Source of the DNA: a virus
Direction: 5' to 3' (one strand)
IMG/VR virus record: IMGVR_UViG_3300012984_000012
Location: 1 to 64,000 of that record
Length of the DNA: 64,000 bases
Part shown: piece by piece, positions 10,170-54,169 of the stretch
Layout of the letters: every line of letters starts with the position of its first letter
Position numbering within the stretch: position 1 is the first letter of the stretch
Notes under the pieces: model-generated
Told to the model about the DNA's origin: nothing
Database searches by the model: none
What the model saw: only the letters and a program-made list of their open reading frames with translations
Program-made: the position numbers and the translations under genes

Positions 10170-10257
10170 GTCTCTTGCGATAAGTATGGTGCGGGCGCGT
10201 TACGCCCATGACCGTGCAACAAGTGTAATTGTGACGCCACGATTGTATGGTGATGTC

Positions 10258-10653
10258 ATGTTTTACTCGAAGTGGGATGACGTCGTCCTAAAGGTCAAGG
10301 AGGACTTTGGTTACGACGATCAGGTCGACGTCGCCTTCAAGGTCATGATCGTCGGTCGCGACTTTAACACTGGTGATTACATCCAGTACCTGTGTTACGT
10401 CGCCCCAGGAGAGCGAATCCCGTATGGGTACGTTACCTTCACCATCAACGACAAGCACGTTCGCCGCTTCGGCGTCGAGAAGAAATTTTTGGGCGAGATC
10501 GGTTGCATCATCACCTCCCAGAACGACATCTTCAGTCACACCCCCGCCGTGAAGGGCGAAAAGTGTAGCAGGTGTCAGATCTTTTTCGAAGGTGCAGTCG
10601 AGACTGACGGCAAGTTTTTCTGTCGAGCGTGTCGCGAAAACCCTTGGCGTTAG
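10258..10653 (+). CDS. Hypothetical protein with C-terminal CxxC...CxxC zinc ribbon; only credible plus-strand gene
   Basis: Fills the gap between minus-strand genes with phage-like codon usage. Start moved to ATG 10258 (MFYSKW), 6 nt after TATGGT; CSRC...CRAC. Confidence 0.75.
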   Translation: MFYSKWDDVVLKVKEDFGYDDQVDVAFKVMIVGRDFNTGDYIQYLCYVAPGERIPYGYVTFTINDKHVRRFGVEKKFLGEIGCIITSQNDIFSHTPAVKGEKCSRCQIFFEGAVETDGKFFCRACRENPWR

Positions 10654-10759
10654 GTCACAGCTCTCAAGATGCACTAGAAAACTAACTAATCAACGACTTA
10701 GACCATTACCTCACATCTGGTTCAGTGTTCTCTTGGTGCCCTTAGGGGCTGAGATGCCG

Positions 10760-11626
10760 TCACTCGAACAAGGTTGGATTGTCAGCGTCTCGGTATCCCA
10801 CATCTATCATCTCTGCAATTTCCTTGGGATCGAATTGCATCGAGTTTAGCGTCAGGCGCTTGTCAGGTTGGACGAGCCTGATCTTGACGTGTTTCACCTT
10901 GTCTGCTTTCATGACGACGTCATTCATCAGGCCAACGAGTTGCAGGTCTGACCTAAGGATCTGGTCCGTCATCAGGTCAATGATCCTGAAGACGTAGTCT
11001 GGGACTGCTGCCTTTCCCCGAGGGTCCCAAGGATTTGCTGCTGACGGGTTGCTGCACATTATGACGTCAACCTCGTTTGCGCCCAACCTGATGGCCTCGC
11101 GCAGCGGCGTCATGTGCCTCAGCCCGCCATCGCACCACAGCTTCCCGTTTATCTCTACTGGTTGCATGAAGAACGGGTAGCTGGACGACGCTTGGACCCA
11201 CTTGATCAGGTCATCGAAATCCTCTCGACCGTACTTGAACTCACCTGTGTCTAGACAGACGGCTCCGACGCGGAGCTTACGACCTGACTTCTTGATAGCG
11301 TCAACGTCAATGTTGTCGTTAAGCAGCTTGATCAGCGGGCTCGCGTCATACGCTGAGGCTTTTCTCAGGCTTAGCAAACGACCGAGGTACTTCCACTTAG
11401 CGATTATTGAGCTCTGGTTTATCGAGCGCCAGAACCTCTCCAGCTCAATGATGCCAGACTTTGGATCGCCGATAGGCGACTGTGCCAGCGCTGCGACGTT
11501 GATGGCTCCGACAGAGACACCACACATGATGTCATAATCACACCCCTGTTCGCCGATCCACTTTTTTAGGACACCTACCTGATAGGCACCTTTCGTAGCA
11601 CCTCCCGACAACACAAGCGCTCGCAT
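10760..11626 (-). CDS. Patatin-like phospholipase
   Basis: LVLSGGATKGAYQVG glycine-rich loop, GVSVG nucleophile elbow, ASSS.P and DGG catalytic motif. Confidence 0.93.
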   Translation of the reverse strand: MRALVLSGGATKGAYQVGVLKKWIGEQGCDYDIMCGVSVGAINVAALAQSPIGDPKSGIIELERFWRSINQSSIIAKWKYLGRLLSLRKASAYDASPLIKLLNDNIDVDAIKKSGRKLRVGAVCLDTGEFKYGREDFDDLIKWVQASSSYPFFMQPVEINGKLWCDGGLRHMTPLREAIRLGANEVDVIMCSNPSAANPWDPRGKAAVPDYVFRIIDLMTDQILRSDLQLVGLMNDVVMKADKVKHVKIRLVQPDKRLTLNSMQFDPKEIAEMIDVGYRDADNPTLFE

Positions 11627-11663
11627 CTATTTTCAAGATATCAAATAGACACGAGGTATGACA

Positions 11664-13896: not shown

Positions 13897-14679
13897 TTAA
13901 TTTCCCATCAAGTAACCAGACACTGTGATGTCAACGTCGGCGCCGGACGTGATGCAACCTCCGGAGACTGGGGTGTTGACGGTCGTGATGAACAGAGGCA
14001 CGCCTCCTCCGTGCATTGCGAACCCACCGCCTGCCGCGGCAGCATAACCCTGGATCTTGGTCGTCAATCCGTCCTTGATCACGACCTTTGTTGAGACGGT
14101 AGCATGGGCGTTTGTCACGAGCACGCTCATGACAGCGAAACGATTGCTCGCGCCAGGTGAAACGAGGATCGTACCCGAGGCCGTCGTGTAGTTTTGGGTG
14201 CCTTGACGTTGAAGGTCAGGGACCGATCCTAACAAGATGACCTGCTTGCCAAGCGAGTCAGCGATGCCTCCGACGATGAGACTGTTCGCTGTCACTGCTT
14301 TGTCTGACGTCCTAGCTTCGAACCCCTCGAACAAGGGATTCGCTGTTATCGTTGAACCTGTCAGGTTAAAACCTTGGACAGCACCGTTACCACCTGAGAC
14401 GACGTTAACGGGCAAGGCAGCCGACCAGGTGACAGGCAAGGATCCCGTAGACGTAACGGTAACGGGACTGGTGATGCTGACCGATCCAGTTATTCCTGCC
14501 GATCCGGTGATCCGCAACGCTGAGGTTGAGTCGATCTGTGGGTATCTTACGATGCCATCAGAGCCGACACCAGCAAACAGTAACCCGGTCATTCCAACAG
14601 GAATTTTCAAGCTTGATGTGACAGCCATCAAGCTACCGCTAACGTCAACTAACACTACGGCGGGATTATCAACACTCAT
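13897..14679 (-). CDS. Putative virion structural protein
   Basis: 260 aa, G/S/T/V-rich with TGS/SGS motifs; ATGA-coupled to the giant fibre gene. Confidence 0.55.
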   Translation of the reverse strand: MSVDNPAVVLVDVSGSLMAVTSSLKIPVGMTGLLFAGVGSDGIVRYPQIDSTSALRITGSAGITGSVSITSPVTVTSTGSLPVTWSAALPVNVVSGGNGAVQGFNLTGSTITANPLFEGFEARTSDKAVTANSLIVGGIADSLGKQVILLGSVPDLQRQGTQNYTTASGTILVSPGASNRFAVMSVLVTNAHATVSTKVVIKDGLTTKIQGYAAAAGGGFAMHGGGVPLFITTVNTPVSGGCITSGADVDITVSGYLMGN

Positions 14680-17600
14680 ATCACTGTCCTCGTTCTAGAG
14701 ATTTCGAACACACCTTGGTAAGTAATCGTGTCTTGCGCTTGGGACAACACTGTCGATCCGTCTGGAGCGTAGACCTTCCAGGTGATCGTGGCTGGCGTCT
14801 TGTTGGGATTGCGTGTCCACAGCTTTTCAACGATCTTTGAGCCACCAGCAGTGCGCCAGATGCTCGCCGTGGGGAAAGGTTGGGGGCCGATGTCAAGCGT
14901 TGACCCAGACCCAATCAGCTCATAGGGTCCGTTTTCAGCTAGGTGAATCAGCTGTCGTAGCGAAGCGTGAGAGTTAGCATCAAACAATGACGATGAAAGG
15001 ATGACCTGACCGTTGCTCTGGCTGGTGACAGTCAACGCTCCAGCTCCGACCAGGTACGACAGGCCCGCAGAGGTTCGTTGGAGCGAACCTGACAGCTGCG
15101 TGAACGTTGAACCCGACAGGGTTGCTACGACCGATTGATCGATCGAGATCGTTGAACCAGCGACCACGATTCCCGTGCCAGCGACTGGGTTTGAACCACC
15201 GCTGCCACCAGACGCGCCTGAGATGATGATCTGGCCGTTCGACTGGGTTATCAGCGTGATTCCGCCTTGGGACAACAGGTAAGGCAATCCAGCACTAGTT
15301 CGTTGGAGCGAACCTGACAGACCTCCTCCTGCAATGACCGGTCCAGAGAAGGTTGAACCAGTCAGCGTCGCGAGAACGTTATCGTTGATGCCAAGAGAGA
15401 CCGTTCCACCGGCACCGCCGTCTGTTAACGTCAATCCCGCTGAGACTGCCAACGATCTCTCGTTAGGAAGCGATCCGGTGTTACCAATCGTTATGTAAGA
15501 CGCAGAGACGTCTGGGACTTGCGTCAACTTGAAACTATTGATCGGTGATAGGCCGATCGTGACGCTTGCGCCGGAGCCGCCGTCGGCGAGCGAAAGGTCA
15601 GCTGAAACAGCTAGCGACCTTTCGTTAGGCAGAGATCCAGTGTTTCCGATCGTCACATAGGACGCAGAAACATCAGCAGCACTGGTGAATGACGAAGCGA
15701 TCACCACCTGACCGTTTGATTGCGAAGCGATCGTTACGTTCTGCCCGGCGACCAGGTAAGATAGGCCCGTAGTAGTCCTCTGAAGCGATCCTGATAGCTG
15801 AACGAAGGTCGAACCTGAGAGCGTTGCGACAACAGCAGGATCGATCGAGATAGTCGATCCTGCAACTAAGATGCCTGCGCCAGCGACAGGATTCGAACCC
15901 CCGCTACCGCCAGAACCGCTGATGATGACTTGACCATTCGATTGGGTCGTGATGGTGATCGAGCCTTGCGAAAGCAGGTATGGAAGGCCAGGAGCGATCT
16001 GTTGTAGAGAGCCCGACAATTGAGCAAAGGTCGAGCCAGACAACGTAGCGACGATCGAGTTATTGACGCCAATGGTAACCGTCGATCCCGCTCCCCCATC
16101 TGTCAGTGTCAACCCAGATCCGACGCTTAACGATCGTTCATTTGGAAGCGAACCCGTGTTACCGATCGTGACGTACGATGCTGAGACATCAGAAAGCGCA
16201 GCCTTAAGGTTGTCTAGGGCATTTGAGACCGTTGAACCTGAAACCGTCGCTGAGTCATTCGTGATGTCACTTGCATTGATGTAACGCTTCGCCGTCGGGT
16301 CTGACGTCAGAGCAATGCCACAGTTCGCCAACGGAAAGCGAAACGGAATGATCGATGAAAACGATCCAGTCACGTTCTGTCCCGCTGCGACAACGGGAGT
16401 CGTCACCGGGAAGGTCAGGTTCGCAGCTGCAGCAACGACTGCATTACCACCACCGGTGAAATTGATGCCAGTAGCAAACGTGTTAGAAGAGCCGGAGCCC
16501 CATACCTTAGCGTTTGCAACAAGCTGACAGCCGTGACCAACGTAGAATCCCGTTTGGCCCGAGCCGTTACACATCTCAAAATCATTCAACAGTTTCACAG
16601 ACGCTTGACCAGTCTGTGTGGTGATCGACGGGTGGTTCATCGAAATGAACGCTGCATCGATGGCGCATGCTGGACCGAAACGGGCAACTGAGTTGCCAGT
16701 AAAGCTCAACCCAGCCTGAAACGAACACCCGTTGAACAAGAAAAACTGGCCTATCAGCGTCTTCGAACCGGTTCCAGCGATGGTTCGGCAGTTGTTAAAC
16801 GTGATCGCGCTTAGCGACGTTGATGACGTTCCTGTCAATTCACACTGGCTGAACGTGATTCCCAAACCTTGAGGAAGAACGGATCCACCAGTGTGATCGT
16901 TCGTTGAGACGTCTTTTACGACGAACGACGCGAGACCAATCGCACTTGGGCCCAATCCAACTAGATTCGAATTGACACCGATCTTAGAGATCTTCGTCAA
17001 AGTTTGTTCAACAACAACCTGGTCACCGATCGAAGGAAAGGTCAAGCTAGCGTCTGACTCACGATAGAACGGTTTGACCCAAGTGTGTTGGGAATCTGCA
17101 CCCAGACCTGTCGAGTAAGTGACCGAACCTGAAGCTGCGCCGCTGATGACCCGAATCCTTCGACTGGCGACGAAGCTGCTCGTCGTCGATGCAATCATGC
17201 CACGAGTTGGCGTAGAAGAATTGGACGCTGTCACCTCTGACAGGGTCATGGGATTGCTTGATGAGACAGTTCCCAAGATTGTCAACGTGTTAGGAGGTTG
17301 GAACGTAGCGTTCAGTGACAACGTATCATACGTTCCTGGTGCAAAGTACAGAACCGTCGTCTGACGAGGAAAGTAAAGAGTTCCCTCTGGGCACAAGATC
17401 TGTGACAGACGCTCTGCAGTTCGAAGCGGCGTGCTGGGTGAGGTGCCGTTGTTAAGATCTGATCCAGAGACAATGTCAACGTACCAACGATCTACCAGGT
17501 GGGCTGGGTTAACTGAACCAGACGGACCAGCCTGGATTCCGTATGATGAAATCTGAACCTGACCGTTCGAGCCCGTCACAACAGAGGTCGTTCCGAAGCC

Positions 17601-23671: not shown

Positions 23672-24276
23672 GGGCTCTCCGACGGGCGCTTGATGAGGAC
23701 GACAGGTTCACCAGGAACGGGCTTGAATGTCGTCCAGTCCGGGTGGGCTGCAAGCCACTCGTCGACAGCAGGTTTCACGCCATGTTTTTCAGTGTCGATC
23801 TTTCGTGTCGCGACAGAGACCTCTTCGTAACCCGGGCGCTCGGAATACCACAGGTCCCTGTCTGACCACCTACCATCGTAATCATCGACAACGATGATGC
23901 TGTGATCGTAGATCATTCGCTCGAGCAGCTTCAGCTCCTCTGAGACAGTATGATAGTTGTGATCGCCATCGAGCAAGATGACGTCAAACTTCATGCCTTG
24001 GTCTACCATCTTCGGTAGGACGGTCAGGCTGTTGTCAGCGACCAGGTACGCTGACTGCTTTGGTTGCAGGTCAAGGTTCGCTAGCGTTAATGTGACAGCA
24101 TCCTGGACGAGGATGTCAATGCCACACGCGAGAAACTCTTGCCTGGTCCTAGCCAGGAAGGCTACTAACGAGATGAACGACACGCCCCTGTCAACACCTA
24201 CCTCCATTATCGAGGGTGGGTGTTTCAATTGGTGCAGGAACTGTTTACACAACGGAAGGTACCCGTGATACGCCAT
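23668..24276 (-). CDS. Class I SAM-dependent methyltransferase (Methyltransf_24-like)
   Basis: MEVGVDRGVS, FDVILLDGDHNY, IVVDDY and GVKPAVDEW motifs. Confidence 0.88.
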   Translation of the reverse strand: MAYHGYLPLCKQFLHQLKHPPSIMEVGVDRGVSFISLVAFLARTRQEFLACGIDILVQDAVTLTLANLDLQPKQSAYLVADNSLTVLPKMVDQGMKFDVILLDGDHNYHTVSEELKLLERMIYDHSIIVVDDYDGRWSDRDLWYSERPGYEEVSVATRKIDTEKHGVKPAVDEWLAAHPDWTTFKPVPGEPVVLIKRPSESP

Positions 24277-24312
24277 CACGGTTATCGTATAACCACAACG
24301 TCAACAGTTCAA

Positions 24313-24537
24313 CTATCGACCAGCAAGCAATACTTGGACAGCAGTCCTGACGCGTTCTTGGAGCTCAGTCGGCAGCACAGACAGCAACACGTAGGTCTCG
24401 ATCTTGGTGATCCCCTGTTGGGTGCCGCCCTCCGTCATCATAGCATTGGGCGTGACGCCCACGCGTAAGGCAACGGGAGCAGGACCAACTTTCGAGTTGA
24501 TCATGGGCTGGTACAGGTCGACTTTTTGGGCGCCCAT
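24313..24537 (-). CDS. Small hypothetical protein
   Basis: ATG 2 nt after the upstream TGA, with AAAGG SD. Confidence 0.65.
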   Translation of the reverse strand: MGAQKVDLYQPMINSKVGPAPVALRVGVTPNAMMTEGGTQQGITKIETYVLLSVLPTELQERVRTAVQVLLAGR

Positions 24538-24539: not shown

Positions 24540-24719
24540 TCAACCTTTCAGGATGCGAGTTCCCTCGTTGAGGGCGTTGTTGGCCTGGGTCAGGCGGGCG
24601 CGAAGCTGCTTGAGCTCGTCTCGCATCGCCTTGGTGTCGTGACCTGACTCAGCCGCGGCGCGGATGGCGTCTTCTTGTTGGGTGATCTGTTCTAGAATTA
24701 GTTCCGTTGATGCTGACAT
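24540..24719 (-). CDS. Small coiled-coil hypothetical protein (59 aa, MSASTELILEQ...ILKG)
   Basis: Translated manually (below the ORF-track cutoff); fills the gap exactly; preceded by TATAATTA. Confidence 0.7.
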   Translation of the reverse strand: MSASTELILEQITQQEDAIRAAAESGHDTKAMRDELKQLRARLTQANNALNEGTRILKG

Positions 24720-24732
24720 GAACGTAATTATA

Positions 24733-25029
24733 CTACGGCATCATGACAACAGCTACGGTATCTTTTAGACCGTGAGCTTGGGTAATCAAGCGGTTGTATT
24801 CATAGCTGCCAGGATCGCAGAAGCAACCTAGGTACACGAGTTCACGAACGTACTTGTCAACCACGTCGCAATCAGGTCTCATGCGAGCGATGAGCTGATT
24901 CGAGATGACAAGCACCGTCATGTCGTCATCATCGCCGAAGCAGACGACGCTGCCCGGGCTGATCTGATCGACTGGGTGCAATGGCATGTTTGCCCCGTTC
25001 GTTTTCAACAGGGAACCCACGATGGCCAT
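24733..25029 (-). CDS. Hypothetical protein
   Basis: 98 aa, 1 nt after the upstream stop. Confidence 0.6.
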   Translation of the reverse strand: MAIVGSLLKTNGANMPLHPVDQISPGSVVCFGDDDDMTVLVISNQLIARMRPDCDVVDKYVRELVYLGCFCDPGSYEYNRLITQAHGLKDTVAVVMMP

Positions 25030-26763: not shown

Positions 26764-26798
26764 AAAGGAAAAGGTCAGGCCCTTTCGAGCCTGACCCT
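26764..26798 (-). terminator. Intrinsic terminator
   Basis: GGTCAGGC-TCGAAAGG-GCCTGACC stem-loop followed by TTTTCCTTT. Confidence 0.85.
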
Positions 26799-28419: not shown

Positions 28420-28455
28420 AAAATCGCGAATGCCCAAGATTTCTCTTGGGCACTC
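28420..28455 (-). terminator. Stem-loop/terminator after the major capsid gene
   Basis: GAGTGCCCAAGA-GAAA-TCTTGGGCATTC, then GCGATTTT. Confidence 0.75.
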
Positions 28456-28484
28456 AAACTTTCTACTTCAGTTGACCTTCAACA

Positions 28485-38670: not shown

Positions 38671-38701
38671 CGACGTCCTCTTGTACCTTTAAGTATCTCT
38701 G

Positions 38702-40324: not shown

Positions 40325-40713
40325 TATCCTAACTCGAATACCGCCTTACGCCTATAGTACGCTGTGCGGCGGGCGTTATGACAGTTGAAATTGATGATCT
40401 CTAGGGAGTCAGCCTCTCCATCCTTGAGGGCTTTCGTAGACAACGCAGATCCAGTCAGGTCCTTGTAATTGCCCTTAACGCTCTTGATGACGGCGGCGAC
40501 AACGCTGTCAGCCTCAGAAGCGTAAGCACGCTTCATCTCGATCATCTGCCTCTCGGTCCCAAAGTTAACGATCGCAGCGTACGACACCAGCATGCGATCG
40601 GGACCCAACAGTGAGATCTTCACTGAGTATGAGGCTGTTTTTGGTGTCGAAGACCTCCCCCAGGTCGTGTCGATCGACTGTCCTAGTGCGTTGAAATCAA
40701 TGTTATCTGCCAT
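40324..40713 (-). CDS. Hypothetical protein
   Basis: GGGGAG SD before MADNID; TATTTA upstream. Confidence 0.7.
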   Translation of the reverse strand: MADNIDFNALGQSIDTTWGRSSTPKTASYSVKISLLGPDRMLVSYAAIVNFGTERQMIEMKRAYASEADSVVAAVIKSVKGNYKDLTGSALSTKALKDGEADSLEIINFNCHNARRTAYYRRKAVFELG

Positions 40714-40755
40714 AGCGTCGGGGCTCCCCAACGTAAATATGGCAGTGCTTACGGT

Positions 40756-41052
40756 CTAATCAACGTCAAAGACAACGAACATCGGAGGACGTTGAGAAAC
40801 GACGTCTTTGACCTGGTCAGGAGACGGGCGCCAGCCTTCTTGCCACTCTTTTCTCCGAGGGTGTGCCCACTGCAAGGCACAAAGGTGACAGCAGGCAAAC
40901 TCGAGATACGCTGTCTCGTCATCACGTGAACGAAACAGTCTGTCACAGACCTGACACGACAGTGGGATAGGAGCCGAGGCTCCAACAGGAACGATGACAA
41001 AGAAGCCTTCGGGTCGTTCTTCTATCAGACGATCTCTGAGATAGGGTCGCAT
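40756..41052 (-). CDS. Small zinc-binding hypothetical protein
   Basis: CQVC...CCHLC...W...WRP; TGATG-coupled to the SbcC-like gene. Confidence 0.7.
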   Translation of the reverse strand: MRPYLRDRLIEERPEGFFVIVPVGASAPIPLSCQVCDRLFRSRDDETAYLEFACCHLCALQWAHPRRKEWQEGWRPSPDQVKDVVSQRPPMFVVFDVD

Positions 41053-43631: not shown

Positions 43632-43632
43632 G

Positions 43633-44289
43633 TTATCCGATCTCCTCTATCACCTCTGCGCCTGGGTACTTACCGATGTCGTCTTTATCGATCACGATCT
43701 CAACGTCACGGTAACCCAAGAACTGCATCCGATGAATGTCACCCAAGAAGACGAAATCATACTCCTTGAAGAAGTCAACCGTTAAGCCGTCCTCGATCAA
43801 CCAGTCGCTCTCTGTCTTGGCTCCCCACACCGGCCCATGATAGCAAGCGATGTTGATCTTTCCCGGAAGAGGCTTTACGCTCTTCCAACCAACCTCGTCA
43901 AAGAGGCTGAAAATGCACCAGGTGTAACCAGGCGCGAATTCATAGACACCGCTGTTCTTGTAGAGATGGATCTTCGGACTACGTAAGGCATTAACGATGG
44001 GCGTGATGGCGTCTTGCCTGGAGAGATTGACTAGGTTTCCATCGTGGTTTCCCAACGTCAGATGGAGCTCAGCGCATGATGACAACGTCTCAAGCCACCA
44101 AGACAGGACCTCGATGTACTCTGGGCTTAGTCCTGATGTCTTCGTGTGAAAAATGTCGCCACCGACGAACACGTGTTGAACGTTGTTTGCTTTGACCTGT
44201 TCTGCGAACGCTTCAAAGACTAACCGATACTCTTCGTGTCTTGAGAGGCCTCTCCAGTGTACGTCAGCAATGTGAGCGATCCTGAGCAT
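43633..44289 (-). CDS. sbcD: SbcD/Mre11-like metallophosphoesterase, N-terminal part
   Basis: HIADVH, GGDIFH, GNHD, YHG and GDIH motifs; ends before the YPGS motif. Confidence 0.9.
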   Translation of the reverse strand: MLRIAHIADVHWRGLSRHEEYRLVFEAFAEQVKANNVQHVFVGGDIFHTKTSGLSPEYIEVLSWWLETLSSCAELHLTLGNHDGNLVNLSRQDAITPIVNALRSPKIHLYKNSGVYEFAPGYTWCIFSLFDEVGWKSVKPLPGKINIACYHGPVWGAKTESDWLIEDGLTVDFFKEYDFVFLGDIHRMQFLGYRDVEIVIDKDDIGKYPGAEVIEEIG

Positions 44290-44335
44290 GCAGTTACTTT
44301 AATAGTGTACTGCATGATCGATAAGCTGTTCAAAA

Positions 44336-45337: not shown

Positions 45338-45359
45338 GGCTGCGACTGGTAAGTATCGA

Positions 45360-46352
45360 TCACAACATCAGCGTTGTCCGAGACACCCTACCTAATCGGG
45401 TCAAAAACGCTGACTTCCAGTCTGCTGGCCTTGCTAGGCTCAGAGCTTCTGCAAACTGTTCTTTGGTCGCGCTGCCTGGATCACCGAACGATCGGGTGTC
45501 GACCAACACAACGCTAACGTCGTAATCAGCTAGCTTCTTAGCCATCTTTAGCGTCTTCGTCTCCCACATGTCACCGTCGAGCGCCAGAGCAATTGGTGTT
45601 CCGTTCGCAATGATCATGTTGAACAAAACAGACTGCTCGTTGAGGTCTGACCCTAACAAGGGCACGGTGTTGTCGATGCACTTGAACATGTCGAACACGC
45701 CTTCACAGATCACCAGCTGCTGGGTCCAATCAACGTTGATCTCGTTGAAAATGACTGGCAGCTTGTCATGATCTGGGTTGTCATATCTCGGTTGCCTAGA
45801 CCTGTCGATGGCTCGAGCGACGAAGTAATTGAGTTGACCCATAGCGTCAAAAGAAGGCACGATGACACGACGGCGCCAGCGCCCCTCATCTGAGACGCAA
45901 AGCTTGAAGTACCACATGTCACGCTCTGTCAGGCCCCTGTCGGCAACGTAACGCCAGGCGGCCCGAGCATCAGGTTCGTTACCAGCCATCACTAACAGCT
46001 TAGAGTCATTAGGCAACTCAAGCCTCTTGGGTTCATCTTGGACGTCGACGATCATGCAACGCCTAGAACGCTCGCGCTCCTCAGCTGTCATGAACTTCTC
46101 TCGGTACTCGTTCAGACGCTCGAGAGTGCTATATTTTCGAAGCAAGGGCGCGAGCGTGTGTGCACGCCAGCCGCACGTCCAACAGTGATTCCTGTCATCA
46201 TCGATCCGGATCGCCAGCTTTTTCTTTGATGGGTCCTTGGGATCGCAGATCGGACACCTGACGTCCATGTTCTTGCTGTTGCGAGCGAGCCTGCCTGCGC
46301 CGAAGCACTGTTCGATAAATCGAACCTTGTCTGAGAGGGTGACGACTGACAC
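45360..46352 (-). CDS. DNA primase (zinc finger + TOPRIM)
   Basis: CPIC...HCWTC, RVIVPSFD...YFVAR, ICEGVFD and ALDGD. Confidence 0.9.
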   Translation of the reverse strand: MSVVTLSDKVRFIEQCFGAGRLARNSKNMDVRCPICDPKDPSKKKLAIRIDDDRNHCWTCGWRAHTLAPLLRKYSTLERLNEYREKFMTAEERERSRRCMIVDVQDEPKRLELPNDSKLLVMAGNEPDARAAWRYVADRGLTERDMWYFKLCVSDEGRWRRRVIVPSFDAMGQLNYFVARAIDRSRQPRYDNPDHDKLPVIFNEINVDWTQQLVICEGVFDMFKCIDNTVPLLGSDLNEQSVLFNMIIANGTPIALALDGDMWETKTLKMAKKLADYDVSVVLVDTRSFGDPGSATKEQFAEALSLARPADWKSAFLTRLGRVSRTTLML

Positions 46353-47011
46353 TACGGTCTCAAAGTAACCCCAGCAGCCACCTTTGGTTTGGCGACCTTC
46401 TTTGGCTTCTTCACCAACGGTTGGATGGGACCACAGACGGTCGCAGCTCGGGCGATGACGTACGCGTCACAGGCGTCCCTGGACCACTCGACCTGCTTTC
46501 CATTCTTCTTGGTTGGCCACTGCACGTGTGACAGGTCATTAGCGACCATGTGTGCAAAGACCTGTTCTTTCTGAGGACCACCCACCGCGGTGCGTTGGAG
46601 CTTGATGCCACACAGCTTACGTGCGTGAGCTGAGCCGATGTACTCAGGATCGCACTTGAACACCATCCGCGTGACGTAACTGACGATCCCATTAAAACGC
46701 ATCAGAGTTGAGATAGTCTGAGCGCTTGACATGCCGGGACGAAATCCCATCAACGGTTCCTCAAGAACGACTCGAGTTGGACAGTAGAACCCATTCCTAG
46801 GTAACCTCTCATCATCGAACGAGTTCCTGATGACGTCTGCCATGTAATGGTACACGACGTCCGCCTTGTCCCACAGGGTCTTGCAACCCTTGAAATCGAT
46901 GTGATCAAGCAAGACGATGTGAGAACCCTTGGCATCGGGCTCGATCGCGTCATCAACGATGCAAACGCCGACGATACTTGTGCTCACGTCTAAACCCATC
47001 AAGAGAGGCAT
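46352..47011 (-). CDS. RuvC-like Holliday junction resolvase
   Basis: GLDVSTSIVG, VLEEP, KEQV and DACDAY. Confidence 0.8.
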   Translation of the reverse strand: MPLLMGLDVSTSIVGVCIVDDAIEPDAKGSHIVLLDHIDFKGCKTLWDKADVVYHYMADVIRNSFDDERLPRNGFYCPTRVVLEEPLMGFRPGMSSAQTISTLMRFNGIVSYVTRMVFKCDPEYIGSAHARKLCGIKLQRTAVGGPQKEQVFAHMVANDLSHVQWPTKKNGKQVEWSRDACDAYVIARAATVCGPIQPLVKKPKKVAKPKVAAGVTLRP

Positions 47012-47048
47012 GGTAATTATCAGCCCTCAGGATGGCCCTCGTAAAACC

Positions 47049-47465
47049 CTATTTCAGCAGACCAAGTAGCTTCAATTCGACCTCTGTGATCACTTCTAGG
47101 GCCACGCCGTGGGTCGAGCACCATTCCTGGGCGGCCTTGAGCTTCTTGACAACCTTCACCTGGCTCGCGCGCCTCTTGGGTTTGATCTCGACGAGAACCT
47201 TTCTGTCCGAGTATTCAACGAGGAAGTCTGGGAAGTAGTTACGTAGCTTCCCGGTCCGGAGGTTGCTGACGTACGGGATCTTGGTCTTTTCGTAAGAGTA
47301 CGTGACGACATCTACGTTCGCGTCCAACCATTGCATGTACGAGAGCTCCCACCCTGACCTGTACTTGCACTCACCCGCTTTTGGAGAGAGGTGCAGGCCC
47401 GTGTGATAGTGACGCTTACGCTTGCGACGTGTCTTACGTTTAGCCAAGCAGCTCGCCTTCAGCAA
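47049..47465 (-). CDS. Head-completion nuclease (T4 gp4 / TnsA-N-like)
   Basis: YRSGWE...WLD...YSYE...IPY...YFPDF...VEIKP...ITE. The start may be TTG at 47447. Confidence 0.8.
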   Translation of the reverse strand: MLKASCLAKRKTRRKRKRHYHTGLHLSPKAGECKYRSGWELSYMQWLDANVDVVTYSYEKTKIPYVSNLRTGKLRNYFPDFLVEYSDRKVLVEIKPKRRASQVKVVKKLKAAQEWCSTHGVALEVITEVELKLLGLLK

Positions 47466-47736
47466 ACATCCCAGCCGTCGACGGACCGTCAGAGAACCTC
47501 TTCGGGTTGCTGATCAGCTGGAAGCTGACGCCTTTTCCGAAGTCCTGTTCCGATGGCGCAGCGACCCACCTTAGGTCACCGTCAAAGACAAGGGCGCTGA
47601 CCTGCTTGTCAGCGACAAAACAAAGCGACCACATGCGTCTGTTCTCAGCACGTCCCAACAAGATGCCAGGGCACACCAAACGATTGGGGGGAAAGTTGAA
47701 GTAAGGTTGGTCAACAAAACGAACGCGAGCTCTCAT
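47440..47736 (-). CDS. Hypothetical protein
   Basis: GAGGA SD; fills the gap. Confidence 0.55.
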   Translation of the reverse strand: MRARVRFVDQPYFNFPPNRLVCPGILLGRAENRRMWSLCFVADKQVSALVFDGDLRWVAAPSEQDFGKGVSFQLISNPKRFSDGPSTAGMFAEGELLG

Positions 47737-47760
47737 GGGTCCTCATAGTGTGTCGTGAGA

Positions 47761-50343
47761 TCAAAAGTCATGTTTGATCTTGAACATTATGCGATCGCCA
47801 TGGCGTTTCATGATGGGTTGGGCGAGCTGCGTCTTCATGACGACGTTGTAATTGTCATCGTGGAAGTTCAAGGCGGTGATGTAAACGAACTCCTTCTCAG
47901 GATCGTTCGGGTACGGCGAAGGTGGCACCTTCATGAAGTTTGGGTTCGACGAAGAGTTGAGTTGGTTCGCTGCAGCCATCACGTCAATCGTCATGACATG
48001 GACGCTCTGGTCTCCCTTGAAGCTGATCTCGTAACCCTCCTTGCCAAAGAAGTAGAGATGCGGGCTCTTCAAGGCGATGATGCCTTCATCATAAAAGATC
48101 GTTCCGACAGAGTTCCATGTCGAGGCACTCGTCAGGCTGTCAGCTCTGTAGATCGTGCCTCGACCATCGTCCTTGAGGGTGACCTTAACAGCACCACCAG
48201 AACCGCTCAAGCTCGGATCTGTCAATTCAAGTGAGCCTGGCAGGATGCGCTTGCCATAGAACAGGTTGCTGATGTCAAAGAATGTTACCTGGTTCGATGA
48301 CGGATCGCGAGTGCGTTGGTACACCGTCAGGGGTGCGCCCATCTGGATGCCCGGATCGAACGTTCCTGATGCAACAGACTTATCGATGGTGTCGACGTAC
48401 TGGTTGAACGCTCGGCCGGGAGGCAGGCCAGGTTGCTCTGGCGTGAAACCTATCGACTCGTTAACGTACGACAGGTCGCCGTCAAAGTCTGATCCAAACA
48501 ACAACGATGATGACAGGACGAGCTCGTCCAAGTGAATGAAACTCAACTCTTCTAGGCCTAGGTCATCAACCGCGCTGGATTGTAAGCTCTCTGAGGCTAG
48601 CAATTCGAAACTGGGAACGAAAAGACCGTCGTCACACGGCATCAGGAACAGGTTCCGTCGACGAACAAAGGGTTGGTCGTATAGAAAATCGTTGGCCGAG
48701 CGGGCCTGCGTCGAGTTCATGATCGCCACACCTGTCATGTGATGCAGGCGTGGGAACACGTTTGAGGCAAAATCCCTCACAAAGTTCTCGATGTTGATGT
48801 AATGACCGGCTACGCCGAACGACATCGCTACGTTGAACGGGTCGCTAGTCGTCCCGTCGACCTCAAAGAAAGGCGTCTGTAGGATACCTCCTATGTCACC
48901 CACGAACTGTCTGAACGGTGACTCTTCGACGAAGAACGGTGGCAAATAGAACGCGATGTAATTGGGATCGATCGACTTTGGGCTGACAGACGACGATTGC
49001 TCGACGTCAAGGTCTGACATGTAATAGCGCTTGATCGCGAGATCGTGCACTTGAGCGTTCAACGGGTGATTGAATCCGTAGAAGATGGGCTCGTCCTGGG
49101 TGTCGTCCTCGATCATCTGATGAAGACCGTCGCGCAAGGCTGGGTTCGGAGCAAAGAAAAACGCTTGGGCGTCGAACCCGTTGTTTCTGCCTTCGTAGTA
49201 GTTGCCGACGCACAACACGTCTGGGTTGGCTCGAGTGGCGCTGACGAACAACCTCGGAGCGACCGTGCCTGATGGGACGACGAAGCTGCCTCGCTTGGCA
49301 CCGTCGACAATGAAAGAACCGGTTCCTTGGTCGATCTGATCCGTGCCCCACCTGACGATGACGTGGTGCCAGTTGTTCCATAACAACGAGTTGTCATCAG
49401 AAAGAAATGCTAGGTCAGCGGGGGCGTAACCCAACCTGGTGTTCAAGCCACCTGAATGATACGCTCTGTTCGGATCTAGCCCCACGTCTCCCGCTCGAGT
49501 TTGTCTGAGGACCGAAGGTGGGATGTCAGCGCTGTGGCTCAGCTGAAGCTGGATCCTAAACGCTAACGGGCGGCCGTTCTGATCTTTTGCTGAACCGGTG
49601 ACGAGCGAGACGGCATAGGTCGACGACAGGTGTAGGATCGTCCCTGCCTTAAAGGCGCCGTCAGGTCGATCGGGCTGGTACTTCGGATTGATGTAGAAAT
49701 CAAAGCTGACTGACCCACTTGGGGTATATGTTCCTGAGACGTAACCCTCGTGCTCGATGCCGCTATCGATGTTTGGGTACAGCATCACTGATGAGGTCGG
49801 CACCGTCGATGACGTGAAGAAGTTAAGGCAGTTGTAGTTGGTGTAAGCCCAATGGGCAGACGGATACGTCGTCCTGTAGTACGAAGATAGCTGGTCCTTG
49901 ACGACTAGCTTTCTCAACGTGTTTGACGTGAAATCGACCGAAGGCGTGAACCTGATGATGTTCAACAGCTTCTGCTTGCGCGCGGAGACGCCTTGTTGTG
50001 TCACCTTTGACATGTAGTCATCAAGCATGCCATTGAACGCGATGGTCGATGAAACGACAAAGTCTGACGTTGCGAGCAGGCCGGCGATGCCGACGCCATC
50101 AACGATCATCGCGTTACGGCCCATGTTCTGGACCGACCTGAGAGTCGTCGTCAGGTCCGTGTCGTTTGCTGTCGCGTCAATGAATGACGAGAGCGGTTCG
50201 GGTTCTTTCTCGATGCTAGACCGGCGAGCAAAGACGTACACAGAACCGGTCGCGCCAGCAGAGCTCGTGACAAAATGTCGTGACGGGTTGGTCACAACCG
50301 TGAATGACTCTACGTCCCCTGTTTCGACCTTAAAGAATGACAT
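47761..50343 (-). CDS. Putative baseplate/tail structural protein with LamG-like segment
   Basis: WHHVIVRW...VGNY LamG-like pattern; C-terminal GTIFYDEG...SSNP...YITALNFHDDN...LAQPI...KHDF shared with 52006..53235. Confidence 0.6.
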   Translation of the reverse strand: MSFFKVETGDVESFTVVTNPSRHFVTSSAGATGSVYVFARRSSIEKEPEPLSSFIDATANDTDLTTTLRSVQNMGRNAMIVDGVGIAGLLATSDFVVSSTIAFNGMLDDYMSKVTQQGVSARKQKLLNIIRFTPSVDFTSNTLRKLVVKDQLSSYYRTTYPSAHWAYTNYNCLNFFTSSTVPTSSVMLYPNIDSGIEHEGYVSGTYTPSGSVSFDFYINPKYQPDRPDGAFKAGTILHLSSTYAVSLVTGSAKDQNGRPLAFRIQLQLSHSADIPPSVLRQTRAGDVGLDPNRAYHSGGLNTRLGYAPADLAFLSDDNSLLWNNWHHVIVRWGTDQIDQGTGSFIVDGAKRGSFVVPSGTVAPRLFVSATRANPDVLCVGNYYEGRNNGFDAQAFFFAPNPALRDGLHQMIEDDTQDEPIFYGFNHPLNAQVHDLAIKRYYMSDLDVEQSSSVSPKSIDPNYIAFYLPPFFVEESPFRQFVGDIGGILQTPFFEVDGTTSDPFNVAMSFGVAGHYINIENFVRDFASNVFPRLHHMTGVAIMNSTQARSANDFLYDQPFVRRRNLFLMPCDDGLFVPSFELLASESLQSSAVDDLGLEELSFIHLDELVLSSSLLFGSDFDGDLSYVNESIGFTPEQPGLPPGRAFNQYVDTIDKSVASGTFDPGIQMGAPLTVYQRTRDPSSNQVTFFDISNLFYGKRILPGSLELTDPSLSGSGGAVKVTLKDDGRGTIYRADSLTSASTWNSVGTIFYDEGIIALKSPHLYFFGKEGYEISFKGDQSVHVMTIDVMAAANQLNSSSNPNFMKVPPSPYPNDPEKEFVYITALNFHDDNYNVVMKTQLAQPIMKRHGDRIMFKIKHDF

Positions 50344-50388
50344 CAGGCTCGTTCGTAACTATACGCCGTGGTGAAGGGGCCTGGCCAC

Positions 50389-50601
50389 CTATCTTTCGCC
50401 CTGGACGAAACTACCGCTGACAAGCCCATTGATCTCAAGCGTGAACCCAGGATGATCAGTGACCCATTGGGGCTGGTACTGATACGTCGGTTGAGGAGGT
50501 TTCCACCCAAACGTCAACGAGACCCTTGGACACGCACAGCGTCCACATATCGAACAACCTCCACGACACGTGGGACAGTTGATGCAATGGTGTGCTGACA
50601 T
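50389..50601 (-). CDS. Small Cys-rich hypothetical protein
   Basis: TGATG-coupled; CINCPTC...CSICGRCAC. Confidence 0.4.
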   Translation of the reverse strand: MSAHHCINCPTCRGGCSICGRCACPRVSLTFGWKPPQPTYQYQPQWVTDHPGFTLEINGLVSGSFVQGER

Positions 50602-50990
50602 CAGTGAGATACTAACGCAACGTGGGCGTTTTGTAACCTCTTGACCTTCGTCTTCATCTTCTCAACGTACTCCTCACGTTTGAAGAACATCGGACGAGAC
50701 CAAAAACCAACGTCTTTCGAGAGGTCCTGCGCCTGCTGAGCGAACCGGACCAGCGCAGGGGCCTTCGGGTTACGATTAGTTTGCATCCATTTTGCGATCG
50801 AGGCAGACTGGTCAGCTAGCTGCTTGAGCTTGTCAGCCGCTTCCTTGTCAACGTCTCCAGCTACCAGGCTGTCGACGAATTGCTCAGCTGCGTCAGCAGT
50901 CGCATCGACGATGCTCTGGGCACGTTGTTCAGGGGCTGGGGCGAGAGCCTCGACGAGGATGCGCTTGAGTTGGCCGACGGTGAGCTTCAT
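50601..50990 (-). CDS. Hypothetical protein with N-terminal MKLTVGQLKRILVE motif
   Basis: ATG 6 nt after TACTTA; carries the shared motif. Confidence 0.75.
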   Translation of the reverse strand: MKLTVGQLKRILVEALAPAPEQRAQSIVDATADAAEQFVDSLVAGDVDKEAADKLKQLADQSASIAKWMQTNRNPKAPALVRFAQQAQDLSKDVGFWSRPMFFKREEYVEKMKTKVKRLQNAHVALVSH

Positions 50991-51007
50991 GTTGGGTAAG
51001 TATCACT

Positions 51008-51955
51008 TCACACCAACTCATCTTCCGTGACAGTCAAGAAAGTAACGTGGTTCGTCTGACACCAGGCGACCGCAGCAGCCTGTTTAGCAACGTTGAGAGC
51101 TGTCTCGGTCAGCAATTTCGGCTTGACCTCGACGAGAAAGACACCTGACAGGCGGGTGACCAAGAAATCAGGCACGTAGTTGCGAACAGATCCTTCGAAC
51201 ACGTATGGGATGCGAAACGGCTCGTGTTCCCAAGACACGACATCCTCGCCCTCGTCTAACATCCGAGCGTAAGCGCTCTCGAACGATGACCTGAGATAGC
51301 ACGTGATGCCGCCATTCTTAACGCCAACGTAGTGCTCGCCTTTGAAACCAGTCGAAGGAGGTGACCACGAACCGCTCACCATCTTGTCAGCGACGATGAT
51401 CGAGATCTTTTCACCGAGGGCACGCAAACGAGAATCTGTTTTAGCAGTCAGTCCTCGTGACCAAGAAGGTCTGCCCAACATAGATCCTGGTTTGCCAAAC
51501 ATACCGTTGTTTTCACCGCTATTCGAACACTCATATCCACAAAATCGTTGATCTCGCTTGACAAACGAGACCGTGAACTCCTGCTTGCACCACTCACACG
51601 TCTTGGTGACATCAGGCTGTCTCGTCTGTCGCGTTGACAGGAAGCAGTCATACGAGCAGTACTTGGCGTCGTCCTTGTACGACTGCACCGCCTCATAGTC
51701 CTTGCCGCAGGCGAGACACTGCTTGGTGACACGTGTCGTCAGCGTCTTAGAGATCGCTGTCTTGGCACATTCCATCCCACAGGTCTTCTGGCCCCTGAAA
51801 CGATAGGCGACGGTGAACGTCTTGCTGCACGTTTCACACGTCAGGGTAACAGGATCGAAGCGTTTCGCGAAGCAATCGTGTGAACAGTACTTCTTGTCCT
51901 TCTTGTGTGACTTGAAGCTGATCCCACATTTTTGACAAGTGTAGTCATGCACCAT
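51008..51955 (-). CDS. Free-standing homing-type endonuclease (four CxxC...C zinc repeats + TnsA-like PD-(D/E)XK)
   Basis: Repeats of CxxC.K.F...(Y/F)CSxxC, GENNGMFGK, RSSFE...HEP...YVPDF...EVKP; start moved to ATG 51955. Confidence 0.8.
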   Translation of the reverse strand: MVHDYTCQKCGISFKSHKKDKKYCSHDCFAKRFDPVTLTCETCSKTFTVAYRFRGQKTCGMECAKTAISKTLTTRVTKQCLACGKDYEAVQSYKDDAKYCSYDCFLSTRQTRQPDVTKTCEWCKQEFTVSFVKRDQRFCGYECSNSGENNGMFGKPGSMLGRPSWSRGLTAKTDSRLRALGEKISIIVADKMVSGSWSPPSTGFKGEHYVGVKNGGITCYLRSSFESAYARMLDEGEDVVSWEHEPFRIPYVFEGSVRNYVPDFLVTRLSGVFLVEVKPKLLTETALNVAKQAAAVAWCQTNHVTFLTVTEDELV

Positions 51956-52005
51956 CAAGTAATGATACAACGCTTTGTTAAGATGTTTACCAGTAGAAAA
52001 TCGTC

Positions 52006-53235
52006 CTAGAAGTCTAACCTGACGCGGAACGTGAGGTCCCTCTCTGGTGACTTCTCCACGGGCCGAGACAGCTTCGCAACCGCGAGTAAGTTGTCGTTTG
52101 CGTCATACATGCCGACGCTGGTCACGAAGGTGAACGACTGTTGCGTGTCCTCCTGACCGATGTCGATGACCTGGATCCTGTTGTCAGTGTCCGTGTACGT
52201 TGGGTTCGACGAGTAGTTAAACTCGTCTGCCTGTGAGCGACAGAAGATCAGGGTGCTGTTGATGTTAGTGACGTTTTGGAACGTGATGGCTGTCTGTGAG
52301 CCCGATCCGAACCGACATGACGCGATGTGATCGATGATGTTGTCGATCGAGGCACTGGTCACGAAGTCCGGGATCATCACTGACGAGGTCTGGGTCTGGG
52401 TGCCTGGGCCGCCTAAGGTTATCCTTCCAAGCGGGTGCATGGCGTCGATCGTTCCCGACATGTACTGGCTCGCGCTGGTCACCTTCGACATGTCGAGGAT
52501 GACGATGCCACGATCGTAGAACATCAGGCCGACGTTACGTGCCGTGTTCGCTGAGTCGACGATGTTTCCGACCTGGCCACCGAACGACGTCAGTTTATTG
52601 GTCGCTGCTCCGATGTCCGTGTAGATAGCTGAGCCTGACGTCGAGGTGACGTAAAGATTTGGTGGTTGTAGCTGCGACTCAGCGGGAGCTGTGCCAGTAG
52701 CGTTGTAGTTGATCGACGCCGTCTGAAAGAACTTCATGGCAAACGTCTCTCGTTTGATCTGATCACGAGCAAAGAGACGCTTGAATGCGATGAACAGGCC
52801 CACGTCGATCTGGTCCGCGACGTCAGACGAGTCAAAGGGCGCCGTGAAGGCCTGCGTTGAATCTCCCAACAACGTGGCAGCGAACTGGCGATACACTTCC
52901 ATCTTCTCACGCATCATCAACGATGACGATGGAAACAGTTCCTTGCCTGCGGCATCAGTTCCCGTCTTGGTCACTGCAACAGTGTTACCATCTGGGAACA
53001 GGCCAACCGTCATGTCAAGGACAGGGTTAGCGGTCTGCAGCGTGAAATCCTGATCAAAGATCGTCTGGAACAACGAGCTCGTCACACCAGGACCGACACC
53101 TCCTGTCACGAAAACCTGGTACTTGCGACGGGAGACTGAACTGCTAACGTCTTCCTGGAGAACGTCTATAAGCTGATTCAGAAAACTCCTCGCTGTCTTA
53201 ATGTCCGACGGCAAAATTTCTTTGAAGATTGCGAT
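52006..53235 (-). CDS. Putative baseplate structural protein (start uncertain: ATC 53235 or ATG 53277)
   Basis: C-terminal FNYSSNPT...VTSVGMYDANDNLLAVAKLSRPV...RVRLDF, similar to tail/baseplate EIGLYD-type motifs. Confidence 0.65.
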   Translation of the reverse strand: MAIFKEILPSDIKTARSFLNQLIDVLQEDVSSSVSRRKYQVFVTGGVGPGVTSSLFQTIFDQDFTLQTANPVLDMTVGLFPDGNTVAVTKTGTDAAGKELFPSSSLMMREKMEVYRQFAATLLGDSTQAFTAPFDSSDVADQIDVGLFIAFKRLFARDQIKRETFAMKFFQTASINYNATGTAPAESQLQPPNLYVTSTSGSAIYTDIGAATNKLTSFGGQVGNIVDSANTARNVGLMFYDRGIVILDMSKVTSASQYMSGTIDAMHPLGRITLGGPGTQTQTSSVMIPDFVTSASIDNIIDHIASCRFGSGSQTAITFQNVTNINSTLIFCRSQADEFNYSSNPTYTDTDNRIQVIDIGQEDTQQSFTFVTSVGMYDANDNLLAVAKLSRPVEKSPERDLTFRVRLDF

Positions 53236-53239
53236 TTTT

Positions 53240-54133
53240 CTACCCTCCGAGTTTGACAACGATTCCGGAGTAATCATTACTCTTGTGGCTCGCCAGGAAC
53301 TCTTTATCAGTGATTCTAACTAACTTCTTACCTTGAGAAAGGAACCATTCGTCTTTTCTGCGATCAATATCGTACGAACTTTTTCCATTGGGATGCAACT
53401 GATCGTAAGGTTTGTCTAGACCGTGCCAAAACTCACCATCAAGTTCAACGTATACGTCAAGTGTTTTGACATAAGCGTCAATCAACCAAGGCTTTTTTCC
53501 GCCATGATCGATTTTTACTTGTTGATCAATGTTGTCATGACCGTAACGCAATCGTAACCACTCAAGCAACAGCATCTCTGGTTTTGAAATGATCCAAGAA
53601 CCAACTCGGCTTGCTGTCGTTCTGTATCCCTTTTGACCTGCTTCACTTAAATTCGTTCGATTCTCAGGCAACGCCAGAGGATCCTTACCGAAACGCTTTA
53701 TCACTGTCGCCTTTCTCTTTGCCTTCGGTCCGCGTGCTTTCAGCGGATGTTCTGCACCGTGACGCTCTATCATCGTTCGCTTGAACCTAGCATTCGATAA
53801 TGACGTTGGCATCGATGGAGAGCTGGCCCCTGTGGTAACCAACCTAGAAGCAATCATCTTCTCGCTTGCGCCGGCGACCTGCGATGAGAACTCGACGCCG
53901 TAACGAGCGAGCTTTGTTTGCTTCCACTGCTGTGCCAGTTTTCCGTTCGATCGACTCTTCTTGTTGCACGCTTTCGAACAAAACGTGAGCGCTCCGTTAG
54001 TTGAGTGAGCGAGCTTGTGACCATGCACGAACTCTTTTCCGCACTCATCACAGTTGAACACGTCACGACGGCGAACCTGTTGGGTGTTCCAACGCTTATG
54101 AAGATATGTCTCATCAATCGTCTTAACGAACAT
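53240..54133 (-). CDS. Free-standing homing-type endonuclease (zinc finger + Vsr/DUF559-like domain)
   Basis: CDEC...FCSKAC, repeated T...RYG/RHG/RFG units, SKPE...IDAY...ELDGEFWH...D.RKD...LVRI; start moved to ATG 54133. Confidence 0.8.
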   Translation of the reverse strand: MFVKTIDETYLHKRWNTQQVRRRDVFNCDECGKEFVHGHKLAHSTNGALTFCSKACNKKSRSNGKLAQQWKQTKLARYGVEFSSQVAGASEKMIASRLVTTGASSPSMPTSLSNARFKRTMIERHGAEHPLKARGPKAKRKATVIKRFGKDPLALPENRTNLSEAGQKGYRTTASRVGSWIISKPEMLLLEWLRLRYGHDNIDQQVKIDHGGKKPWLIDAYVKTLDVYVELDGEFWHGLDKPYDQLHPNGKSSYDIDRRKDEWFLSQGKKLVRITDKEFLASHKSNDYSGIVVKLGG

Positions 54134-54169
54134 CAAACAGAAGGTAACACTTCTTTGATGCATCGTAAA

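Follow-up and report, generated by a model that had tools for sequence, protein, structure and literature searches.

The viral record IMGVR_UViG_3300012984_000012 comprises 129,880 nt with an estimated completeness of 38%, and its bases 1-64000 form the window analyzed here. Judged from its sequence, the source is an uncultured T4-like jumbo phage. The capsid protein is a distant relative of gp23, with best matches in uncultured phages of 480-600 kb and in Flavobacterium, Rhodothermus and cyano-myoviruses. Nearly all genes of the window are carried by the minus strand. Structural genes (two tail sheaths, adaptor, major head, portal and large terminase) are interleaved with genes for enzymes, namely patatin, methyltransferase, SbcCD, primase, a RuvC-like protein and two homing-type endonucleases; PHROG and Pfam scans agree with the gene names that an earlier sequence-only reading had assigned. 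The same reading had described eight hairpins which bury the start codons of non-structural genes together with a host-type -10 box. It had proposed that they systematically follow an inverse of the logic known from phage T4, the leaderless mRNA of the gene being translated and late read-through RNA being silenced. Here we present a set of features of these start regions, which comprise a two-part promoter abutting the start codon, hairpins at a minority of the genes and a late-type motif, together with their comparison to relatives and to known systems.

A total of 121 genes were called contig-wide using a home-made codon-usage caller with start choice guided by the Shine-Dalgarno (SD) sequence. 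For the hairpin test, RNA folds of the region from -45 to +10 of each start were set against those of 100-300 dinucleotide shuffles (100 for all 121 genes). Three full-length relatives of 369, 309 and 340 kb (G001-G003, 1259 genes), which share ancestry, were processed with the same pipeline. A position weight matrix (PWM) was built from the relatives only and scored on 7900 ATG/GTG positions of the contig. A protein search with SbcD delivered 80 loci at 60-85% identity with 56 distinct upstream sequences, and a nucleotide search of the phage collection with positions 40000-52000 of the window gave no match.

Upstream of sbcD the relatives carry TTGAACA or TTGTACAG, followed after 17-18 nt by (G)TAnnnT and after another 6-14 nt (mode 7) by the ATG, without an SD. 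The pattern T[TA][GA][ATC]AC-N17/18-TAnnnT is located 5' of sbcD in 34 of the 56 distinct relatives. With one mismatch allowed it occurs at 37 places of the contig, and five of these sit 4-14 nt before a gene start (about 0.2 expected), namely at the methyltransferase gene, sbcD and the starts 73134, 90354 and 95987. Position 90354 is doubtful as a leaderless start, because the SD-led ATG 90417 fits better. Contig-wide, TAnnnT precedes the start by 5-9 nt in 18 of 121 genes, compared with 96 of 3000 control ATGs (p 2e-7), and the -10-like boxes reported before the start codons are thus real as a class.

In the three full-length relatives 223 of 1259 genes possess TAnnnT at 5-9 nt, in 145 of them at exactly 6 nt. 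The logo of these 145 genes contains GTGaAA at positions -36 to -31 and GnGG ahead of the hexamer. C at position -1 occurs in 83% of them (43% of the other genes), and a GTGAAA match of at least 5/6 in 51% (2% of the other genes). The commonest -10 hexamer of this leaderless class in G001-G003 is TAGGAT, 6 nt before the ATG. The possibility that TAGGAT-type hexamers are mere SDs was rejected: they share the flanking -35 and C(-1) signals with the hexamers that do not resemble an SD, and therefore SD-like hexamers are to be counted as promoters as well.

Scored with the PWM, the plus-strand gene (ATG 10258; 4th best of all positions), the methyltransferase gene, endonuclease-1 and ORF59 (open reading frame starting at 24719) are all within the top 0.25%, and sbcD scores equally high when a longer distance between -10 box and ATG is allowed. 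Patatin, endonuclease-2 and the RuvC-like gene starting at 47011 score poorly in the contig. A generic scan for the E. coli-type sigma-70 consensus gave no excess over shuffles (8 sites against 9.8 expected, and 13 against 11.6) and lists just two of the eight sites claimed earlier. The motif is therefore regarded as family-specific, and the designation of these promoters as host-type is not maintained. The energy of the SD duplex is 0 to -2.2 kcal/mol at six of the eight sites and -2.8 kcal/mol at the plus-strand gene (median of the 121 genes -5.1 kcal/mol), in agreement with the earlier observation that most sites lack an SD. Contig genes with the two-part promoter encode methyltransferase, SbcD, helicase, exonuclease, a GroEL-like protein and endonuclease-1, in addition to ORF59 and the plus-strand gene; all are non-structural. 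The phage family thus very probably possesses a two-part promoter with TTGAAC(A)/GTGAAA at -35, a spacer of 17-18 nt and a -10 element (G)GTAnnnT ending about 6 nt before the start codon, a geometry that would imply leaderless mRNA without SD. From the fixed distance of 6 nt and the C(-1)/A context it follows that transcription should begin on the AUG or within a few bases of it, and we infer that the mRNAs of these genes are leaderless. The boxes 6-8 nt before SD-less starts belong to this real promoter class, which is conserved in the family.

The coordinates given earlier for the eight hairpins proved right. Five hairpins exceed the shuffled sequences (patatin, methyltransferase, ORF59, sbcD and endonuclease-2; z about -2 to -3.4), whereas two are weak (endonuclease-1 and the plus-strand gene) and the weak one claimed at 47011 was not recovered, since no significant hairpin exists at this SD-led start (Table 1). 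The hairpin of ORF59, which had been described as weak as well, is a clear one. In the patatin hairpin the loop contains an extended -10-like sequence, TGaTATCTT, with the hexamer at 11640-11635. ATATCTT was also considered as a variant of the late promoter and rejected, as none of its 26 copies in four genomes precedes a start. The first of the two methyltransferase hairpins (24320-24300) contains the -35 element TTGAAC (24312-24307) in its loop and passes the terminator-like scan; the second (24299-24275) encloses the -10 element TACGAT (24289-24284) and extends to the GTG/ATG at 24279/24276. The sbcD stem consists of 8 perfect base pairs, CATGCAGT/ACTGCATG (44316-44287), with the ATG 44289 inside, and the weak stem of endonuclease-1 of 9 bp with three G:U pairs (51969-51948). 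At patatin, methyltransferase, ORF59 and endonuclease-1 the sense fold is 5-9 kcal/mol more stable than the antisense fold through G:U pairs, a comparison biased by the choice of the sites on the sense strand. The asymmetry reported earlier thus stands for these four sites but not for sbcD, where the antisense fold is the more stable one.

Table 1. Genes, start-region hairpins, promoters and late-type motifs of the window (z, folding energy relative to shuffles; start pairing, probability that the start codon is paired; PWM, percentile in the matrix built from the relatives)
Feature	Coordinates	Strand	Description	Fold, sense/antisense (kcal/mol)	z	Start pairing	PWM
Patatin	10760-11626	-	PHROG/Pfam scans				
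Methyltransferase	23668-24279	-	PHROG/Pfam scans				
SbcD-like (sbcD)	43633-44289	-	PHROG/Pfam scans				
Endonuclease-1, homing-type	51008-51970	-	PHROG/Pfam scans				
Endonuclease-2, homing-type	53240-54163	-	PHROG/Pfam scans				
Patatin hairpin	11621..11654	-	Stem of 12-13 bp with G:U; ATG 11626-11624 and next codons in 3' arm	-15.9/-9.8	-2.4	1.0	96.9 (weak)
Methyltransferase promoter region, two hairpins	24275..24320	-	TTGAAC-17-TACGAT-7-ATG	-15.4 or -16.3/-6.3	-1.5 to -2.0	0.5-0.7	99.86
ORF59 hairpin	24711..24751	-	Nested stems burying ATG 24719; TATAAT 24732-24727, 7 nt before ATG; no SD	-14.9/-10.1	-2.7	1.0	99.76
sbcD promoter and hairpin	44287..44333	-	-35 TTGAACA 44333-44327; -10 TACACT 44309-44304	-13.2/-16.2	-2.1	1.0	
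Endonuclease-1 start region	51948..51989	-	TAAACA (51989-51984)-16-TATCAT (51967-51962)-6-ATG 51955; match in generic scan	-8.0/-3.0	-0.5 to -1.0	0.99	99.78
Endonuclease-2 hairpin	54130..54161	-	First ATG region (54163) pairs with second ATG (54133); TACCTT 54146-54141, 7 nt before 54133; fold values apply if ATG 54133 is the start	-14.2/	-3.4	1.0	98.6 (weak)
Plus-strand gene start region	10223..10260	+	GTGTAA (10223-10228)-17-TATGGT (10246-10251)-6-ATG 10258; C at -1; weak hairpin		-0.4 to -1.4	0.9	99.95
RuvC-like gene start	47011..47045	-	SD-led (SD -6.1 kcal/mol); generic scan TTTACG-18-GATAAT		+0.4		93.9
Late-type motif GATACTTA, copies	3681-3688, 6807-6814, 10181-10187, 32418-32425, 38690-38697, 45350-45357, 50997-51004	-	6-34 nt before structural genes or genes of unknown function				
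Late-type motif GATACTTA, copy at sbcD	45350..45357	-	12 nt before ATG 45337 of the gene directly upstream of sbcD				
Hairpin at 40713	40707..40745	-	Covers SD (GGGGAG) and start codon (ATG 40713) of the 129-aa gene adjoining the large terminase gene		-4.4		

Contig-wide, z values below -2 were found at 7 of 121 gene starts. A class defined blind to folding, by the lack of an SD and the presence of TAnnnT (n=8), differs from the other 113 genes in mean z (-1.44 vs -0.02, p 3e-4) and in start-pairing probability (0.73 vs 0.45). The effect is smaller in the three relatives, where the mean z of leaderless-type genes is -0.43 compared with -0.14 (p 0.011). There, 22 of 223 leaderless-type genes carry a strong stem that buries the start (z < -1.7, pairing > 0.6); the corresponding numbers are 43 of 990 for random ATGs (p 0.0025) and 53 of 1036 for other genes. 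For stems with z < -3.4 the numbers are 9 of 223, 11 of 990 and 7 of 1036, respectively. The enrichment of promoters inside hairpins in the relatives amounts to about 2.4-fold, and to 4-6-fold for very strong stems. Several of their genes (e.g., G2 156859 and G1 31578) agree exactly with the arrangement described in the sequence-only reading, the loop being formed by the -10 hexamer and the 3' arm containing the ATG. Among the nine or ten strongest hairpins of the relatives are those of exonuclease, ThyX, epimerase and helicase genes, so that the genes concerned are not especially toxic enzymes. Only the helicase gene (start region at contig 69111-69165) has a start codon that is predicted to be paired in each of the four genomes (probability 0.66-1.0, z -0.2 to -3.5). 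The stem sequences are unrelated, and this start is the best candidate for a conserved gate.

Of the 64 copies of the late-type motif ATACTTA (usually in the form GATACTTA) in four genomes, 43 are followed by a gene start after 3-45 nt (background 2.6%). The contig genes preceded by the motif are those of the two sheaths, of the adaptor and of a baseplate wedge protein, and five without known function, one of which is the gene directly upstream of sbcD. By analogy to the single-box late promoter TATAAATA of T4 we infer that GATACTTA is the putative late promoter in this clade. As some copies of the motif are separated from an SD-less ATG by just 6-12 nt, leaderless mRNAs may exist among the late genes as well. 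Between the motif-preceded gene starting at 45337 and sbcD, the scan gave no terminator-like site whose stem exceeds 5 bp, and this is the single hint that read-through RNA of another temporal class may enter sbcD.

The most stable start-burying hairpin of the contig is that at 40713, and the late-type motif CCATATTTA (40742-40734) lies inside its 5' arm. The 129-aa gene gave no family match; at a guess, it may be the small terminase gene. Relatives of this gene carry ATA[C/T/G]TTA at the equivalent place, about 20 nt before the ATG. The outer helix, formed by GCCAT of the motif and ATGGC of the start, is present in the single-sequence folds of six of eight sequences, with inner stems that differ in sequence, and one of the six consensus pairs of the alignment is compensatory. 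The late motif lies inside a comparable stem at two further genes of the relatives. The predicted structure at 40713 corresponds to the arrangement of T4 e and soc with the usual polarity, and it supports gating as a mechanism used in the family. A very stable hairpin hence precedes a gene of the structural module, an observation that the sequence-only reading had itself regarded as speaking against its proposal. The restriction to non-structural genes applies to the two-part promoter in the contig, but not to the hairpins, and an exclusively inverse logic does not agree with the ordinary T4 polarity seen at 40713 and in the relatives.

Two known systems are close. The first comprises the hairpins of T4 e, soc, 49, I-TevI/II/III and segB and of Aeh1 mobE. 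According to two reports, the hairpin sequesters the initiation region, whereas transcripts of an internal promoter lack the 5' arm and are translated, and this control serves nucleases and a lytic enzyme within long co-directional units (PMC3014915, PMC2988022). The sites described here share with the T4 gates a predicted RNA helix over the SD and/or the AUG (z about -2 or lower and pairing 0.5-1.0 at five of the eight sites; both elements buried at 40713) and, at 40713, the polarity and the SD. A promoter whose transcripts would exclude the 5' arm may be a further parallel; its motifs have comparative support at methyltransferase, sbcD, ORF59, endonuclease-1 and 10258, and are weak at patatin and endonuclease-2. 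Most of the sites differ from the T4 gates in the two-part promoter abutting the AUG, the missing SD, the burial of the AUG itself and the mRNA predicted from the sequence to be leaderless; in addition, the genes are non-structural here and the timing may be inverted. The second system comprises the promoter-early stem-loop (PeSL) cassettes of the T4-type phages RB49 and phi1, a report on which describes a sigma-70-like early promoter with a stem-loop between or over the -35 and -10 elements, with G-T pairs noted and a proposed role in halting spill-over from upstream units (PMC2839356). According to this report, the PeSL cassettes are conserved, span about 100 bp, contain an SD and G-rich stems, and act as terminators and recombination sites beside ORFans (PMC2839356). 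The methyltransferase stems over -35 and -10 resemble this arrangement, as do patatin and ORF59 with a -10-like box in or next to the loop. In contrast to PeSLs, the stems enclose the start codon, and the sites lack both an SD and a U-tract; a repeated cassette is missing as well, none of the direct-repeat families covering the sites.

Promoters of leaderless genes with TANNNT 6-7 nt before the AUG occur in Actinobacteria, in Deinococcus-Thermus and in some phages. The promoters described here agree with them in the -10 hexamer about 6 nt before the start, the missing SD and the context of a pyrimidine at -1 and A at +1. They differ from them in the family-specific -35 element (GTGAAA/TTGAAC), the G-rich extension before the -10 element, the presence in a T4-like jumbo phage and the hairpin at some genes. 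Phage transcripts are often leaderless, as stated in PMC5312081. Searches of open-access literature text gave no account of leaderless phage genes gated by hairpins. A hairpin burying the AUG of a would-be leaderless message is plausible as a variant of both the T4 e/soc/I-TevI gating and the PeSL cassettes.

At a minority of the genes with the two-part promoter, the DNA upstream of the predicted transcription start is complementary to the start codon and the codons after it; within the window, this applies to patatin, ORF59, sbcD and endonuclease-2, and partly to methyltransferase. Only read-through RNA from an upstream promoter would include this 5' arm and be able to fold the hairpin that hides the AUG. 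The leaderless transcript of the gene itself would lack the arm, so that the hairpin could not form and the AUG would be free. This would transfer the principle of T4 e, soc and I-TevI to a leaderless message. The usual T4 polarity is predicted in the same family as well: at 40713 the 5' arm contains the late motif, and SD and AUG are buried. A hairpin gate acting on read-through RNA at a minority of the genes is put forward tentatively, at slightly less than even confidence, and the promoter and the gate taken together are an evenly balanced proposition.

Several observations weigh against such a gate, in particular as a regular component of the promoter. Gene calls, starts and the generic anti-SD sequence used are approximations, with a manual choice of the starts 11626 and 24719. 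Promoter matches are weak at two of the strongest hairpins (patatin and endonuclease-2), and of the five contig genes with the best start-abutting two-part promoter just two have a hairpin. The median z of leaderless-type genes in the relatives equals the background (-0.10 vs -0.08 in random ATGs), the effect coming solely from an excess of about 5-6% of genes in the tail of the distribution. TAGGAT, the sequence of many -10 boxes, could work as an SD on read-through RNA, which would counter general silencing; located at the ideal SD distance, the element might be a promoter box for one transcript and an SD in another. When the upstream neighbor is co-directional, 21 of 198 genes have a strong hairpin, and when it is divergent, 1 of 23, which is the predicted direction but of low power (p 0.48).

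Conservation between orthologues is limited as well. The patatin hairpin is missing in both relatives available, which possess an SD and of which one carries GATACTTA, and the endonuclease-2 hairpin is not kept in the single relative. About a dozen relatives of the methyltransferase gene are leaderless-type and others SD-led, with variable pairing of the start. For sbcD the mean z over the 56 relatives is -0.71, and the hairpin is absent from the three full-length relatives. Strong stems are restricted to the nearest subclade (L004 -3.5, L007 -3.1, L009 -4.75), where L012 also keeps the hairpin. By eye, the helix of L009 is formed in a shifted register by different bases. The subclade alignment contains one compensatory pair in ten (covariation term +0.58). 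The covariation anticipated by the sequence-only reading is thus little, and hairpins are seldom kept between orthologues. The term "systematically" is likewise too strong, given a strong hairpin at about 10% of such genes and medians at background. A systematic inverse temporal logic is unproven and quite unlikely, and the gate is optional and evolutionarily short-lived and not a fixed part of the promoter.

The observations may also be explained by real promoters with incidental hairpins, the earlier reading having picked the tail of a chance distribution. As the upstream DNA is not part of the gene's own leaderless mRNA, nothing would select against its pairing with the AUG. This agrees with the equal medians in the relatives, the loss of hairpins between orthologues and the weak covariation, and also with the simple frequency of paired starts: the ATG lies in a helix of at least 6 bp in 27 of 121 genes compared with 789 of 3000 control ATGs, and among positions with a -10 box it is paired in 6 of 18 compared with 26 of 96. 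Chance does not readily account for the excess of very strong stems or for the difference of the contig class that was defined without regard to folding. The extension of the stems into the coding sequence and the pairing of the helicase AUG in four of four genomes with different sequences also speak against it, and we consider incidental hairpins a somewhat unlikely explanation.

If the stem-loops were PeSL-like cassettes, they would affect transcription or RNA 3' ends, as attenuators, terminators or stabilizers for incoming upstream RNA, and not act as translational gates. The stem-loops of RB49 and phi1 between or over -35 and -10 terminate transcription in reporter assays, as reported in PMC2839356, and the first methyltransferase hairpin with its -35 element in the loop likewise has terminator-like features. 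The stems covering an ATG are all missing from the terminator-like lists and possess no U-tract, and their 3' arms lie within coding sequence. Direct repeats were found only in the giant gene described below, so that no conserved repeated cassette flanks the genes, and in contrast to PeSLs no SD follows the promoter; this explanation is improbable. The inverted repeats could further represent DNA operators of dimeric regulators which overlap the promoters, for example in autorepression of an endonuclease. I-TevI binds an operator overlapping its own promoter (PMC2988022), and the sbcD repeat is a perfect palindrome with an equally stable antisense fold. Arm sequences and loop lengths (3-14 nt) vary between the sites, the arms share no motif, and at four sites the pairing requires G:U, available on the sense strand only. 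Operators are very improbable. N4-type DNA-hairpin promoters were dropped from consideration, as stem size and sequence are variable and the majority of the promoters have no stem.

Beyond single sites, the proposed gate on read-through RNA and the arrangement at 40713 could be combined into a two-way translational insulation of co-directional, interleaved genes of different temporal classes, each gene being translated solely from its own promoter. At early-to-late junctions, as in T4, the hairpin burying SD and AUG would have a late promoter in its 5' arm; at late-to-early junctions the 5'-terminal AUG would be buried by a hairpin with a leaderless promoter inside. We regard this arrangement as unlikely on balance; if true, it would represent the first hairpin gate on leaderless mRNAs.

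Other features of the window include a gene of 2565 aa (14676-22373, minus strand) with many diverged internal repeats, the spacings of which are mostly multiples of about 231-246 nt. The PHROG scan gave no match for this gene, and its product is probably a repetitive fiber- or surface-type protein. A strong hairpin (22318-22373, minus strand; z -2.8 to -3.4) is located just 5' of its SD-less ATG and leaves the ATG unpaired. Two good intrinsic-terminator-like hairpins with 12-13 bp and a T-run are present at 26771-26798 and 28427-28456 (both minus strand), the latter directly 3' of the major head gene. Between the two homing-type endonuclease genes (51008-54163, minus strand) lies a single gene of 423 aa without known function (52006-53277). 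The endonuclease-2 gene has an atypical codon usage and was overlooked by the codon-score gene caller.

If the promoter reading holds, about one gene in six would be leaderless in a widespread clade of uncultured T4-like phages of 300-370 kb, and the leaderless motif together with the late marker GATACTTA would permit the annotation of start sites and temporal classes by sequence alone. The gate is not systematic and is thus unsuitable as an annotation rule. If the hairpins gate translation, the classical T4 mechanism would be extended to leaderless messages, and this would help to explain how nucleases, a phospholipase and homing endonucleases are accommodated within long arrays of structural genes.

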